Positions 1,642 through 11,861 of a stretch of 11,861 nt of DNA are shown piece after piece (positions within the stretch are counted from its first letter, which is position 1; every line of letters begins with the position of its first letter). The DNA comes from Candidatus Heimdallarchaeota archaeon (GTDB lineage: Archaea > Asgardarchaeota > Heimdallarchaeia > Heimdallarchaeales > Kariarchaeaceae): NCBI GenBank assembly GCA_015523565.1, contig WAKA01000137.1, forward strand, positions 1 to 11,861, read 5' to 3'. The notes beneath the pieces were generated by a model. It was not told where the DNA came from. It saw only the letters and a list, made by a program, of their open reading frames with translations, and made no database searches. Made by a program: the position numbers and the translations under genes.

Positions 1642-3339
1642 CTAAATCAATCCATTCAACAAGACCATCAAGGGTCCAATGACCATCGATATGGTAATAC
1701 TCCATCTGATAGGTTGAGGAATGTCAAACCTGACTTGCAAACCATTGACCTTGTCCACAAATTCCTTGGCTGGGGGAAAACCATTTCCTGATGCAAGAGC
1801 ACTTGAGAAGTCAATGTCATTATGCATTTTCAGGAATTGCTGGAAACTCTGTTGTATTTGTTGTCTCAAGCTTGGATGGTCACGATCTGCAAGGACAATA
1901 AGCCGAAGACCATTATTCTCCTCGACCAAGATGTCATTGTTGCCACGTTTGATGGTTGAAACAACCTCATCACCACCAGTCAGCTCCTTGTCAACCGATG
2001 AAAGAGCAGTGAAAAACCCAGAAAGCAGATATTCATCCGTGTCAAAAGTCACCAGATGGGAAGCTAAAGGAAGTCCTTCTTTTGTAATCAACAAGACATC
2101 ATGAACCATTGCAGGTTCATAAGAAAGAACAAGGAAGACAGAAAGAAGAAGTATGGCAAAATCAATCGAGAACAGAAGAGGAATAAGCCACTGGGGAACT
2201 GAAAGATTGTTGGCGTTGTTTAGGTAAAGGAGCTCATATATCACCCCAGGAAGAATAAATGAGAGCAAAAGGAAAAGAGAAACCAAGAGCACTAAATTCT
2301 TGACAGAAACCCCATGAACCTCCTTGAGCTGTGAAAAAGCTTTCTTGATGGTTGAATAATCGTGAGGAACAAATAATAACCAAACCAACACGGAAAGGGC
2401 AAGTAAAGAGACAGGGATCACCATTAAAGGACTCAGTTCAGAAAAGGCAAGGGTATTTCCAGCCCTAAGCAGTGTCAGTCCAACATTGAAAACAAAATTC
2501 ATGATGAAAGGCAATACGATTGATCCAGTTTGTTCGAATGATGAGAAGTTGATGTAGAGAATTATGAGGAAAACAGCAACCTGGCCCCAAAATAGGAAGG
2601 GGGAGAAGTTGGGAATTGATTTCCAGTCAAAAATTATTTTGAAAAGAGTAGTCACCTTTTCCCGACCTTGAATGAGGAAAAAGAAAATCAAATAGAACAC
2701 ATAGAAAATGGTGGCAAGAATATTTGCAATACCTACAGGAAATCGAGACTTTAGGGAAGTATGTGCATAGCTGAAAAAGAAGAAGCCTGCAGAAAGTGGC
2801 CAAATGAAACCCATTTCGATGATTCCAAAGTAATAACTGGCGTTAAGCTCTTTGGGTGTAAACAATCGATCACCCACAGTATAAGCGAATATTGAAAGGA
2901 ACCCATTTGATCCAAATTCAAGGTAAAAGAGTGGGGTCATTATGACATAGAATATCAGGATGGATATAAATCCCAATGCAATACCTTTACGAACAAGACT
3001 CATGAATGACTGATCCTTGGTGTGAAAAGTATAACCGAAATCAGACCAAGTCCATCCATCCCTAGTGCGTCGGATCCATAAGCCAAACACAAGGCTGGAT
3101 ATGAAAAGAAGTCCATTCAATACAAACGTAATCCTGACAATTTCCTCAAAATTCCCACCTCTTAAATCCCCAACATTTGGAGAGCCCAAATACCCATCCG
3201 CAATGGGACGATAAAGATTAAGTCCTTCAAACGCAGCATCAACCAATGCAATGATTGTAAAACTTACAAGAAATATAAAACTTATCTCAACGATGAGGAT
3301 AAGTCGATCCAAAGTATTATTCAAATTTTCGATCATCAT
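1642..3339 (-). CDS. Polytopic membrane protein: degenerate CPBP/CAAX-protease-like domain + longin/roadblock-like domain + C-terminal TM helix
   Basis: 565 aa with about ten hydrophobic helices in aa 12-407. CPBP-like scaffold: GWTWSDFGY, PLSAGFFFFSY, IFYVFY, QTGSIVLPFIMNFVFN. Soluble aa ~411-535 (DVLLITKEGLPL...DEYLLSGFFTALSSVDKEL...LRLIVLAD) match the pattern of Asgard longin-like domains. Hydrophobic tail at aa ~544-565. The CDS is secure; the domain calls are by eye. Confidence 0.7.
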   Translation of the reverse strand: MMIENLNNTLDRLILIVEISFIFLVSFTIIALVDAAFEGLNLYRPIADGYLGSPNVGDLRGGNFEEIVRITFVLNGLLFISSLVFGLWIRRTRDGWTWSDFGYTFHTKDQSFMSLVRKGIALGFISILIFYVIMTPLFYLEFGSNGFLSIFAYTVGDRLFTPKELNASYYFGIIEMGFIWPLSAGFFFFSYAHTSLKSRFPVGIANILATIFYVFYLIFFFLIQGREKVTTLFKIIFDWKSIPNFSPFLFWGQVAVFLIILYINFSSFEQTGSIVLPFIMNFVFNVGLTLLRAGNTLAFSELSPLMVIPVSLLALSVLVWLLFVPHDYSTIKKAFSQLKEVHGVSVKNLVLLVSLFLLLSFILPGVIYELLYLNNANNLSVPQWLIPLLFSIDFAILLLSVFLVLSYEPAMVHDVLLITKEGLPLASHLVTFDTDEYLLSGFFTALSSVDKELTGGDEVVSTIKRGNNDILVEENNGLRLIVLADRDHPSLRQQIQQSFQQFLKMHNDIDFSSALASGNGFPPAKEFVDKVNGLQVRFDIPQPIRWSITISMVIGPLMVLLNGLI

Positions 3340-3467: not shown

Positions 3468-4037
3468 ATGTCATTTGATTTATTATTCAACACAGGACTA
3501 AAGATGGAGAAAGAAGGATTCAAAGCCTTGGCAGATGATCCCAGCACCACTAAAGACGCGTGGGTGTTGATTTTGGGATCAATCGTTGTCTATGCCTTGT
3601 CAAAATCAGTTGGATTTTCCTCTTTTGAGTTTCCATTTGAGGTAAATAATACAAAAATAATAATTAATTGGGTTACTGTTTTTGTAATGGCATTGATCTA
3701 TGCTTACTTTGCAACCATAGCATTCACGTACATCTATGGATTTGTTGCAAAAATCATGGGGATAAGAATTGAGTATAGTGCACTGATACGAATAATGGGT
3801 GCTGTTCAGGTTTGGGCATACATAGGAAGCTTGATTTCCTTTGTATTGAATTTTGGCAGCATTTTTTATTTGATTGCCCTTATAGGATTTGTCATTGGAG
3901 TAATTGAAGTATCAGAAAAAGATGAATTAACGGTTTTCATGGCATTGTTTATTGCCTTGGTTTTGACAGCCCTCTTAATATTAGTGTCTATAGGGGGATT
4001 AGTCCTGCTTATCTTTATGGGAATAATTGGAATGTGA
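3468..4037 (+). CDS. Yip1-domain membrane protein
   Basis: 189 aa. An N-terminal 'EGFKALADDPSTTKDAWVLI' is followed by ~5 TM helices containing 'FVAKIMG...YSALIRIMG' and 'FVIGVIEVSEKD', the typical prokaryotic Yip1 layout. Confidence 0.7.
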   Translation: MSFDLLFNTGLKMEKEGFKALADDPSTTKDAWVLILGSIVVYALSKSVGFSSFEFPFEVNNTKIIINWVTVFVMALIYAYFATIAFTYIYGFVAKIMGIRIEYSALIRIMGAVQVWAYIGSLISFVLNFGSIFYLIALIGFVIGVIEVSEKDELTVFMALFIALVLTALLILVSIGGLVLLIFMGIIGM

Positions 4038-4089: not shown

Positions 4090-5403
4090 ATGGTAGAATT
4101 CTTGCAAACTCTGGATGAGGTAAATTCCCTTTACAATGACTTAAGCAATCATCCTTCGTTTCAGATAAGAAACAGGTTGTTTATGGGAGGAGGGAAATAC
4201 GGTGCAGGTCTTGCAGAACTTTCGGGGCTATTGCAAGAGATACAAATGACATTGAAGGGGCTTCCTGAAAGAAAGAAAGAATTTTTTGGAGATGAACTGC
4301 AAAAGAAAACCCAAGAACTAAAAAAAACGCTGGAGATGTTGATAACCCACCATAGCATGCTTTCAACAGAGGATTTGATAAAACTCAAAGATGTGTTCCG
4401 AGTAGAATTGCAGGACTTTGCCAAGAAAGTGAATGAAATAAAGGAAATGCCAGATCAGGAAATTCCAACAAATGAGGAGATGTTGACAGAGGAGTTAAAA
4501 GAGTTAAGACAAAAGATAGAGGACGGATTTACCGCACTGGACAGTTCATACCTTTGGAGGGGAATGGTAAGGAACGAAGGAGAAGACGAAGTAAGAGTCA
4601 TAAAAGAATTACAGAACCAGGTCATCAAAAATATTGCAAATATTGATGATGTTGAAATTTTAAAGTTTTTAGCTATGTTTTCCGCAGAACTAAGAAACAT
4701 AGTAACTGATTCCAAAGACGAAAACCTGCTTCTGATCAATTTTTTCCTTTTCCTGACAGAACTGCTTGAAAAACCCAACTCATGGAAATTAAGCAAGCCA
4801 GACAAGGGAAATCCCAGCAAGAGTAAAATTACCCACCATGATGTTATGCTTGATTTGGAGACAAAAATCAATAGAGGAATGACCACTTGGCTAATCTATC
4901 TTTTCGATGATCTAGAGAAAAACACACCCCTAGAAAGTTTGGATGAAGTATTCGTAAATGAACTCTATCAAATGAGTAGAGATCCAATTGAATTCTTCAT
5001 GTGGACCATGTCCCAGTTCGCGTATCGGAAAAAGGATGACGAGCTTATTAGCCTTTCAGAAACCTATGCCACATTGGCCAGCTCACTTTTGAGCCTCATT
5101 TTTGACTTGGAGAATTTGGGTTATTCAGACATTGCAAAAGAGGTCATGGAATTCAATGCCATCAATCCAAGTACCGCAATTGATGACATCGCAGATCTCT
5201 ATGATCCAAAAAAAATCAATCCGAATACATTGAAAAATGCAATAAAAAAGAACATGTCTGAGCTTTCAAGATTGGCGACAGACATTTCCCAATTGGGAGA
5301 TCTGGAAGACGCGATTATAAGAGTGTTTAACTTTTCGTTCAGGGACAATGAGTTCCATACAATTGAACAGGTGAGAGAATTTTTACTGACTTTACAAAAC
5401 TAA
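4090..5403 (+). CDS. Hypothetical soluble alpha-helical protein
   Basis: 437-aa ORF rich in E/K/L, with heptad-like segments at aa ~40-150 and no recognisable catalytic motif. TATA-like CTTAAATA (4057-4064) lies ~25 nt upstream. Confidence 0.85.
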   Translation: MVEFLQTLDEVNSLYNDLSNHPSFQIRNRLFMGGGKYGAGLAELSGLLQEIQMTLKGLPERKKEFFGDELQKKTQELKKTLEMLITHHSMLSTEDLIKLKDVFRVELQDFAKKVNEIKEMPDQEIPTNEEMLTEELKELRQKIEDGFTALDSSYLWRGMVRNEGEDEVRVIKELQNQVIKNIANIDDVEILKFLAMFSAELRNIVTDSKDENLLLINFFLFLTELLEKPNSWKLSKPDKGNPSKSKITHHDVMLDLETKINRGMTTWLIYLFDDLEKNTPLESLDEVFVNELYQMSRDPIEFFMWTMSQFAYRKKDDELISLSETYATLASSLLSLIFDLENLGYSDIAKEVMEFNAINPSTAIDDIADLYDPKKINPNTLKNAIKKNMSELSRLATDISQLGDLEDAIIRVFNFSFRDNEFHTIEQVREFLLTLQN

Positions 5404-9049: not shown

Positions 9050-9391
9050 TCAAATGTCCAACTCTATACCCAAAGCATTCTTGACCAAAGATTTCAGAGC
9101 ACTTTCCTCTTTTTCCATCTTCCCTTCAGGACCAGGAATTTCGACTATGACTGGCCATGGACGCAACATTGCACGTTCAAGGATACGCCTGTTCATCTCC
9201 GCATATTTTTCAGTAATGATCAGCACTGCAACACTGTCATCCTGCAACAGCTTCGTCAACAGTTTCCGACCATCATCCCCTTCAGGAACTGCATAAATGT
9301 GCTTGATACCAGCAAGCTTCAGACCCAATGAGGTCATCTCATCTGTCAACCCAACAATTCGAGACCGCTCTACAAACCTATGGCTCATCAA
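9050..9391 (-). CDS. atpF: A/V-type ATP synthase subunit F
   Basis: 113 aa containing IVGLTDEMTSLGLKLAGI, VAVLIITE, PVIVEIPG and LVKNALGIEL, which match the subunit F pattern (archaeal nomenclature). Confidence 0.9.
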   Translation of the reverse strand: MMSHRFVERSRIVGLTDEMTSLGLKLAGIKHIYAVPEGDDGRKLLTKLLQDDSVAVLIITEKYAEMNRRILERAMLRPWPVIVEIPGPEGKMEKEESALKSLVKNALGIELDI

Positions 9392-9399
9392 TATACACC

Positions 9400-9723
9400 T
9401 TACTTAAGCAAAAGCTCCATGGCAGCCTTGACAGCTTCTTTCCCCTTTGCCTTCTGCGACTCGCGAAGAGCCTCCTTCTTTTCAGCAGTTTCCTGATCAA
9501 TCTGCGCCAATAAATCCTTGCTTTTCGATTCCTCCTCCCTAATAAGCTTGTCAATTTGGCTCTCAGCCTCTTTACGGGCATCAGAAATGATCTTTTCCGC
9601 TTTTGACTTCGCCTCCTCCAATATCTGCGCAGCCTTGACTTTGGCTTCCTCCTCAAGCTTTGAGCTCTCTTCTTCAATATCCACGATTTCCTTAAGGATT
9701 TCCTCTGTTGATGTCATCTCCAT
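9400..9723 (-). CDS. atpH: A/V-type ATP synthase peripheral stalk subunit H (G-like)
   Basis: 107-aa E/K/A-rich coiled coil (EILKEIVDIEEE...ILEEAKSKAEKIISDARKEAE...EAVKAAMELLLK) ending 8 bp upstream of atpF. A GGGAG SD-like motif lies 7 nt before the ATG. Confidence 0.8.
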   Translation of the reverse strand: MEMTSTEEILKEIVDIEEESSKLEEEAKVKAAQILEEAKSKAEKIISDARKEAESQIDKLIREEESKSKDLLAQIDQETAEKKEALRESQKAKGKEAVKAAMELLLK

Positions 9724-10575: not shown

Positions 10576-11861
10576 GTCTCATTGAGTGAGAATCCTAGAA
10601 TTAGGTTGAAACTTTTCAGCTCTTCTTGGATAATTTCACGCAAGATTGATGTCTCATTGAGTGAGAATCCTAGAATTAGGTTGAAACAGGCAATGCGTGA
10701 TTTTTATATTTTCCAAACCTCATTGTCTCATTGAGTGAGAATCCTAGAATTAGGTTGAAACTATGTTTCAGCCAATTCAAACATAGACATAATATGTTGT
10801 CTCATTGAGTGAGAATCCTAGAATTAGGTTGAAACATTTTCATCGGTATATTGTGCAATGGAGCCCCCGTGTGTCTCATTGAGTGAGAATCCTAGAATTA
10901 GGTTGAAACATTTATACATGATTTCAACATCTCTGTTGTTATAAATCGTCTCATTGAGTGAGAATCCTAGAATTAGGTTGAAACACTTTATCAAATGCGG
11001 GAGAAACAGAAGTTATTGTTGATGTCTCATTGAGTGAGAATCCTAGAATTAGGTTGAAACCAGTGAGCGGAGCGAACAAGAGCAAAAGCATTCAAAGGTC
11101 TCATTGAGTGAGAATCCTAGAATTAGGTTGAAACTGGAACACTATACTTTCGGTGGCGAAATGCTTATAAAGTCCCATTGAGTGAGAATCCTAGAATTAG
11201 GTTGAAACTACATTGAAATGTGAACACTTTTCTGGAAATCAATAAAGTCTCATTGAGTGAGAATCCTAGAATTAGGTTGAAACTCAGTAAGATATTCCTC
11301 AGTATCATAAGTTATTGGTAGTCTCATTGAGTGAGAATCCTAGAATTAGGTTGAAACCCAATGCAGCTATTGCACCAGCTATCACTATGGTTGTCTCATT
11401 GAGTGAGAATCCTAGAATTAGGTTGAAACCAAATACGGTTTCGGTCTTCTTCCCACATCGCCGAATGTCTCATTGAGTGAGAATCCTAGAATTAGGTTGA
11501 AACAACAAACCTCCCAATTTCTGCTTGAATTGCTTCCTTGTGTCTCATTGAGTGAGAATCCTAGAATTAGGTTGAAACCGGGCGACTCAACTTCAGGTCA
11601 CAGTTTGTGACTGAGGTCTCATTGAGTGAGAATCCTAGAATTAGGTTGAAACACAAGGAACTACAAAGGTTGTTGGGGCTACCAAAGAGTCTCATTGAGT
11701 GAGAATCCTAGAATTAGGTTGAAACTTCGTATTGTATTATCAAATTATCAAGATTGTATTTATGTCTCATTGAGTGAGAATCCTAGAATTAGGTTGAAAC
11801 GAAGGGGAGCTTGCCCATGACTGAGAAATCTAATGTCTTGTCTCATTGAGTGAGAATCCTA
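10576..11861 (+). CRISPR. CRISPR array with 37-bp repeat GTCTCATTGAGTGAGAATCCTAGAATTAGGTTGAAAC; 17 full + 1 partial repeat, 17 unique spacers of 35-39 bp; truncated by the window end
   Basis: Repeats start at 10576, 10651, 10725, 10799, 10873, 10948, 11024, 11098, 11172 (T4>C variant), 11247, 11321, 11393, 11467, 11542, 11616, 11689, 11764 and 11840 (partial). The 3' GTTGAAAC end and the upstream leader orient the array on the + strand and suggest a Cas6-processed class 1 (type I/III) system. Confidence 0.99.

Follow-up and report, generated by a model that had tools for sequence, protein, structure and literature searches.

A degenerate CPBP-fold membrane domain joined to a predicted longin in a conserved family of Asgard archaeal proteins

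Introduction

What does a membrane domain of the CPBP (Rce1) type do once its catalytic residues have been replaced and a longin has been joined to it? The question is raised by one open reading frame on a contig of Candidatus Heimdallarchaeota archaeon (WAKA01000137.1, assembly GCA_015523565.1; the whole stretch of 11,861 nucleotides is called the window here). In Rce1, E140 and H173 activate water, H227 and N231 form the oxyanion hole, and R145 lies at the base of the cavity (PMC5874806). The initial annotation, made from the sequence alone, described a catalytically dead relative of such proteases with a tail-anchored longin-like domain, and proposed a receptor coupled to a GTPase-regulating module. 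Here, the fold, catalytic site, topology, and family of the protein are analyzed and the possible roles weighed.

Results

A polytopic protein in a patchily distributed family

The features of the gene and its product are listed in Table 1. AlphaFold2 models were built on the family alignment, and both the full-length protein (pLDDT 86, pTM 0.83) and the membrane domain alone (pLDDT 90, pTM 0.89) were modeled with confidence; the full-length pTM suggests that the whole protein is one compact unit. As the initial annotation had laid out, three transmembrane (TM) helices follow motif 4 in the model (residues 304-323, 346-376, and 385-406), after which the chain runs through the soluble domain (407-538) into one last hydrophobic helix (542-564). 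Across the family there are 11 hydrophobic helices, 10 of them N-terminal to the longin. The last helix is thus present as described, but "tail anchor" is the wrong label for it, because the term is used of soluble proteins whose only membrane helix lies at the C-terminus and this is the eleventh helix of a polytopic one. A homodimer prediction for residues 345-565 scored 0.17 against a mark of 0.42.

Table 1. Features of the CPBP-longin gene and protein, with positions in the window
Feature	Residues	Window position	Strand	Remarks or basis
Whole open reading frame	565 aa	1642..3339	-	11 predicted TM helices; CPBP pseudo-protease, 2 TM, longin, final TM
CPBP/Rce1-fold membrane domain, TM1-TM8 and amphipathic helices	10-344	2308..3312	-	VIA Z, Atlas TM, Atlas features
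Degenerate motif 1	181-190	2770..2799	-	E140 to A184, E141 to G185, R145 to F189 (Rce1 numbering first); alignments
Degenerate motif 2	212-216	2692..2706	-	H173 to Y216; alignments
Motif 4 region	271-285	2485..2529	-	H227 to N281; N231 kept as N285; alignments
TM9-TM10 hairpin	346-406	2122..2304	-	Brings the chain back to the cytoplasmic side (predicted); mean identity 0.40-0.43
Longin domain (predicted)	407-538	1726..2121	-	Alpha1 helix (434-454) is the best-conserved part, 0.76
Longin model elements (E, strand; H, helix)	E407-419, E424-428, H436-454, E460-465, E468-475, E478-484, H489-505, H522-532			AlphaFold2 model
TM11	546-564	1648..1704	-	Pins the longin at its C-terminal end (predicted)

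A first search returned 47 homologs with 41-68% identity, and the full-length family members number 63 in all. Named members, among them HeimC2_06490 (OLS28430.1) of Heimdallarchaeota LC_2, are all annotated "hypothetical protein" and all come from Asgard archaea. The family is nearly restricted to Heimdallarchaeia (Kariarchaeaceae and Hodarchaeales) and mostly single-copy, as in the window's genome. Matches occur in 22 of 400 genomes of the phylum: in 7 of 11 other genomes of the window's own family, in 2/3, 9/22, and 2/2 genomes of three other families of the same class, and in one genome of a different class, with no match in the large families of other classes (0/135 genomes in the largest). 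The gene was not found in five relatives that are 92-95% complete, and one genome from the window's own genus, 93% complete, lacks it; this patchy distribution shows that the protein is dispensable. Trees were quick IQ-TREE and FastTree reconstructions. The quick tree roughly follows the Hodarchaeales and Kariarchaeaceae labels, which fits vertical descent with losses. Four divergent members (P0055 and P0198 to P0200) have the same architecture as the main clade. In a tree with active CPBPs, main and divergent members fall together in a single clade, the divergent subclade being sister to the main clade (FastTree support 0.996).

A search for a stand-alone version of the membrane domain found just fragments and one truncated member of 220 residues, and no active CPBP fused to a longin was seen among 124 longin-bearing library matches or 32 Asgard CPBP open reading frames, a small sample. 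In P0050, the TM10-longin piece is duplicated before a truncated membrane domain, probably an assembly artifact. The window's genome also encodes a 756-residue protein (C207:20661-22928, reverse strand; L006) with an intact CPBP domain C-terminal to a large permease-like membrane region, and a 754-residue counterpart is found in genome G055.

The membrane domain has the CPBP fold

Against 48,161 PDB representatives, just two matches to the membrane domain exceed Z 8 in the VIA fold search, namely, SpdC (6u0o; Z 11.6, 230 residues aligned, rmsd 4.9) and Rce1 (4cad; Z 11.5, 229 aligned, rmsd 4.7), the next being at Z 6.2; Z values below 13 call for caution with helical bundles, but three further lines concur: the Atlas searches, a profile-profile comparison, and the PF02517 matches of the divergent subclade. 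TM1-8 map along the entire Rce1 chain. In Foldseek, 4cad ranked first and Rce1 chains took ranks 1, 2, 4, and 5, but with E values of 0.17-0.3. The Atlas shape search placed a PF02517 cluster on top (TM 0.51/0.60; next, 0.33), and 24 of the 30 matches in the Atlas feature search were PF02517 (CPBP) clusters. Profile-profile comparison (hhalign) with 29 Asgard CPBPs gave a score of 37.2 (E = 1.3e-4, probability 54%). The reversed profile scored 12.1, and 60 block-shuffled ones scored 16.8 +/- 2.6, with a maximum of 25.4. The CPBP fold that had been proposed for this region is thereby borne out. Neither APH-1 nor PrsW is among the 50 best entries listed for the membrane domain in this fold search; the two may nonetheless be kin.

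Direct sequence searches yield less. Pfam and NCBIfam returned for the protein only a subthreshold Robl_LC7 match (PF03259, E = 0.0023), a PDB sequence search with the family profile found nothing, and the main clade has no PF02517 match in Pfam. P0198 to P0200 do match PF02517 (E = 3.7e-4, 0.017, and 0.0072), the best at 21.2 bits and so below the cutoff of 22.4, and they match Sybindin as well (E = 0.02-0.03). The protein is a CPBP superfamily homolog, predicted not to be an active CAAX protease, and its sequence relation to PF02517 is indirect.

Loss of the catalytic residues and conservation of the former site

E140, R145, and H173 are missing from all full-length members, being replaced by Ala, Phe, and Tyr, respectively, in 54/54 of those aligned, whereas N231 is retained in every aligned member. 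In the main clade, E141 is Gly in 50/50, and H227 is Asn in 48 and Thr in 2 of 50. The four divergent members retain E141 and H227 and are the only ones with an intact HxxxN, so that the EExxxR position reads A-G-xxx-F in the main clade and A-E-xxx-F in the subclade. Because the subclade keeps these two residues and matches PF02517, it fixes the register of the dead motifs, which hhalign against the 29 Asgard CPBPs and a joint alignment both confirm. The motif positions had been assigned correctly at the outset (A184, G185, and F189 at E140, E141, and R145; F212 to Y216 at FxxxH; N281 to N285 at HxxxN), and the alignment of homologs upholds the suggestion that the loss of catalytic residues is conserved. 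The alignments show that no full-length member keeps the proteolytic Glu/His chemistry; the protein is predicted to be noncatalytic.

The replacement residues at the dead site are nearly invariant. Conservation along the protein peaks in TM4 (mean identity, 0.79) and reaches 0.68-0.72 in TM1, TM2, TM5, and TM7, compared with 0.37-0.43 for TM3 and TM8-10; the dead site is therefore maintained and not decaying. Since the main and divergent groups form one clade, the simplest history has the fusion and the loss of the dyad first and remodeling later. The residue patterns suggest that the protease site decayed stepwise and that the divergent subclade may be a living intermediate.

A predicted longin between transmembrane helices

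In the AlphaFold2 model, residues 407-538 have the topology beta-beta-alpha-beta-beta-beta-alpha-alpha. Longin folds are matched by VAMP7 (Z 10.9), AP2 sigma (9.9), Mon1-Ccz1 (9.7), and an Asgard longin (9.6), and roadblock folds, with Z up to 11.0, are level with longins on the core. Roadblock matches end at residues 500-513, and the helix preceding the domain is a hydrophobic TM helix; longin matches extend to residues 534-540. A longin has a five-stranded sheet, a central alpha1 helix, and two C-terminal helices, and is defined by its C-terminal instead of its N-terminal helix (PMC10933270), whereas in a roadblock an N-terminal helix packs on the sheet. Because only longins align through the final helix, the model-based comparison shows that the soluble loop before the last helix is a predicted longin. 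G422 and P424 (GxP) and the D435-xxLxSGFxxA-A445 stretch are conserved throughout the family, in agreement with the GLPL/DxxLxSGFxxA pattern first noted; the longin fold proposed with it is likewise supported. An Atlas feature search with the longin gave just leads under 0.9.

The Asgard longin set is large, with 450 library matches, and 42 open reading frames in the window's genome carry the same longin type. About a dozen of them encode proteins of 290-450 residues in which the longin comes last, after 4-7 TM helices (contigs C126, C154, C50, C185, C54, C194, C204, C31, C72, and C22; L072-L081). A membrane domain with a longin output is thus a common local design in this genome. The membrane domains of these proteins have no Pfam match, and they are a candidate receptor family. 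The protein studied here holds the sole longin of the 42 with TM helices on both flanks, and it has no counterpart among 122 scored library matches. About five residues separate the longin from the last helix. A SNARE-type tail-anchored longin, of the kind in Sec22 and VAMP7, was considered and rejected, as ten TM helices precede the longin and there is no SNARE motif; the analogy with such proteins drawn in the initial annotation does not hold. Fusions of longins to signaling domains have been reported in Asgard NPRL2-like longins (10.1101/2020.10.19.343400).

Predicted topology places the former cavity and the longin on opposite faces

The N-terminus and loops 2, 4, and 8 carry 17-20 Lys plus Arg per 100 residues, compared with 3-7 in loops 1, 3, 7, and 9, the exceptions being loop 5 (11.7) and the short loop 6 (3.9). 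Helix count and this K/R bias together place the N-terminus and the longin in the cytoplasm, and the longin is thus predicted not to face the outside of the cell, a location which would have spoken against the original proposal. SpdC likewise has its post-TM8 part in the cytoplasm, and its TM3-4 loop lies outside the cell (10.1101/2020.05.21.109470). The cavity mouth of MmRce1 is on the side of the eight-helix unit that faces away from its two termini (PMC5874806). Because TM1-8 span the whole Rce1 chain and two more helices precede the longin, cavity mouth and longin would lie on opposite faces. From charge bias and these parallels, we strongly infer that the N-terminus and the longin are cytoplasmic, with the former cavity opening on the outer face or outer leaflet. 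The new Phe and Tyr residues could fill the former cavity.

Gene neighborhood and small GTPases

Gene context points to no partner: across about 30 loci, no neighbors are shared beyond the genus level, and no GTPase gene is a conserved neighbor of the CPBP-longin gene. A-type ATPase H/F and acyl-CoA dehydrogenase neighbors are kept in close relatives only. In the window, A/V-type ATPase subunits H(G) and F form a two-gene unit (9050-9723, reverse strand) apart from the remaining operon, and five opposite-strand genes lie between it and the CPBP-longin gene; in two close relatives (L065 and L021), H(G)/F sit directly upstream of that gene in the same direction. Head-to-head with it in the window is a gene for a weakly Yip1-like membrane protein (3468-4037, forward strand; PF04893, E = 0.0075), an adjacency not conserved in close relatives. 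Next comes a frame for a 437-residue helical protein (4090-5403, forward strand) with no convincing family match, followed by a gene for a TPR protein. A CRISPR array (10576-11861) runs off the contig end; its 37-bp repeat, which ends in GTTGAAAC, is present at least 17 times in full, with a period of 72-76 bp and unique spacers; the 11,861-nucleotide window contains no cas genes. Elsewhere, three loci of the divergent subclade (L035, L100, and L101) have the gene between those for an MFS transporter and for proline racemase and aconitase X (hydroxyproline use), in close relatives only, and the homolog in Heimdallarchaeota LC_2 (L102:5085-9472) lies convergent to a gene for a Cdc48/p97 AAA ATPase and to an MCP-signal gene, an arrangement not conserved elsewhere.

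The window's genome encodes 20 small GTPases, none of which has a CaaX ending (0/20), and Cys is not enriched at position -4 (27, compared with 28-34 at neighboring positions). A PPTA prenyltransferase alpha subunit was not found in this 90% complete genome. Two adjoining long open reading frames of 841 and 1,374 residues (C135:3291-7532, forward strand) have multiple PF00432 prenyltransferase/squalene-cyclase repeats.

Discussion

How might a protein without its protease chemistry function? Noncatalytic CPBPs work by binding to other proteins in the membrane (PMC12260438; 10.64898/2026.10.04.756536): SpdC scaffolds SagB, SpbR inhibits signal peptidase, and the CovS kinase is tuned by CflP and Abx1. 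A partner-binding role is most likely here, because the degenerate CPBPs studied so far bind another membrane protein. We give about even chances to a membrane sensor or scaffold, a noncatalytic CPBP protein that serves a longin signaling module. By analogy with SpdC, SpbR, and CflP/Abx1, the remodeled site lined with aromatic residues and Asn, or the TM1-TM2-TM4 surface, would bind a fixed partner without cutting it. The partner might be a second membrane protein, bound through a TM segment or a peptide, or else a lipid, in either case at the outer leaflet. The longin would be held by TM10 and TM11, its alpha1 helix pairing with another longin or roadblock protein, and its state might be relayed onward to the network, small-GTPase or TPR/two-component, of which Asgard longins are part.

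A longin that is rigid and pinned at both ends may instead be a static tether, which counts against a sensor/scaffold of this kind, as do the patchy distribution, the two exceptional loops, and the lack of a conserved neighbor. In a static scaffold, the dead CPBP bundle would hold a partner membrane protein, much as SpdC holds SagB or as APH-1 serves in gamma-secretase, while the longin only localizes or assembles the complex, with no transmembrane signal; we consider this somewhat unlikely, though a real competitor. It draws on the scaffold SpdC being the best structural match, on a longin pinned at both ends in domains predicted as one unit (pTM 0.83), and on the non-GTPase roles that are also known for longins (PMC10933270), but the former active-site helices, and not just the outer surfaces, are near-invariant, which fits a retained binding pocket, and the many 4-7 TM-longin proteins of the genome suggest a modular sensor-output design.

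More doubtful is a one-chain transmembrane receptor, in which the Rce1-type cavity, turned into an outward peptide or lipid site, would by its occupancy switch the clamped cytoplasmic longin as a GEF or GAP platform for a small GTPase. The opposite-face geometry is receptor-like; it strengthens the receptor idea of the initial annotation and speaks against the binding of prenylated GTPase tails from the cytoplasm. A GTPase-regulating role would be drawn solely from the behavior of longins elsewhere.

It is improbable that the site has been rewired for other chemistry, such as lipid or acyl transfer, by E175, N75, N206, Y213, Y216, N281, N285, T289, N295, and K228. E175, N75, Y213, K228, and N295 are indeed invariant in 50/50 main-clade members, but the positions are not kept in the four divergent ones (E175 is His, Tyr, or Phe; N75 is Thr or Ile; N206 is Arg), no His is left in the main-clade site, and the degenerate CPBPs tested to date work without catalysis (PMC12260438). 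We think it very improbable that the bundle forms a longin-controlled gated transporter or lipid translocator: buried polar residues run along several helices and weak matches to MFS and RnfA/NqrE bundles reach Z 5-6, but such values are background for helical bundles, and no conserved transport genes lie nearby. Hardly credible is a cytoplasmic pocket of the Rce1 kind that would take up the prenylated CaaX tails of small GTPases and pass them to the longin, a link implied by the initial annotation for which Rce1 as second structural match, the 20 small GTPases, and the PF00432 repeat proteins could be cited, but which fails on the lack of CaaX ends, the unenriched Cys, the missing PPTA alpha subunit (at 90% completeness), and a cavity mouth on the face opposite the longin.

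The inputs to the large Asgard repertoire of longin/roadblock proteins and small GTPases are almost unknown, and this family offers a concrete, strongly conserved, membrane-embedded candidate with a confident model in Hodarchaeales and Kariarchaeaceae. The possible living intermediate suggests the stepwise decay of an intramembrane protease into a binding module after longin fusion, and comparable cases are the SpdC-type regulators of bacteria and eukaryotic APH-1. It is patchy, and no eukaryotic counterpart was seen. If the one-chain receptor reading is true, an intramembrane-protease-derived receptor sits in the archaeal lineages closest to eukaryotes.

No description of a CPBP-longin fusion was found in the literature searched, largely the main texts of open-access papers, as the initial annotation had supposed. 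The architecture is real, conserved, and apparently undescribed, while its two parts and the general membrane-plus-longin design are already known.

With SpdC (LyrA) of Staphylococcus aureus (PDB 6U0O), the protein shares the eight-helix CPBP fold (Z 11.6 over 230 residues), degenerate motifs, a cytoplasmic extension after TM8, and the prokaryotic orientation, at 10% identity. The noncatalytic CPBPs SpdC, SpbR, LnsB, and CflP/Abx1 are stand-alone proteins that regulate hydrolases, signal peptidase, or histidine kinases, and none has a longin or three extra helices. With Rce1, the type II CAAX protease (PF02517, 4CAD), it has in common the fold (Z 11.5 over 229 residues), the motif spacing, and N231, to which the subclade adds E141 and H227; it differs in the loss of E140, R145, and H173 in all members, a cavity that probably opens outward, and the lack of CaaX substrates in the genome. 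APH-1 of gamma-secretase, reportedly identified as a degenerate CPBP-clan member by Pei et al. in 2011, has seven helices and no longin; the likeness lies in a CPBP-clan protein that lost catalysis and turned scaffold, and orthology is not claimed. Known longins (VAMP7, AP sigma, TRAPPC2/sybindin, Mon1-Ccz1, and the NPRL2-like Asgard longins) have the same topology, with Z 9-11 over 109-130 residues, and Asgard longins share the GxP/DxxLxSGF signature, but here the domain occupies the final cytoplasmic loop of a protein that has 11 TM helices and no SNARE motif. Similar in design are the Asgard 4-7 TM proteins that end in a longin, together with the NPRL2-like fusions. The family's membrane profile matches none of the 4-7 TM proteins, its membrane domain being a CPBP pseudo-enzyme, whereas the pairing of a membrane domain with a cytoplasmic longin, and lineage-specific domain shuffling, are shared.
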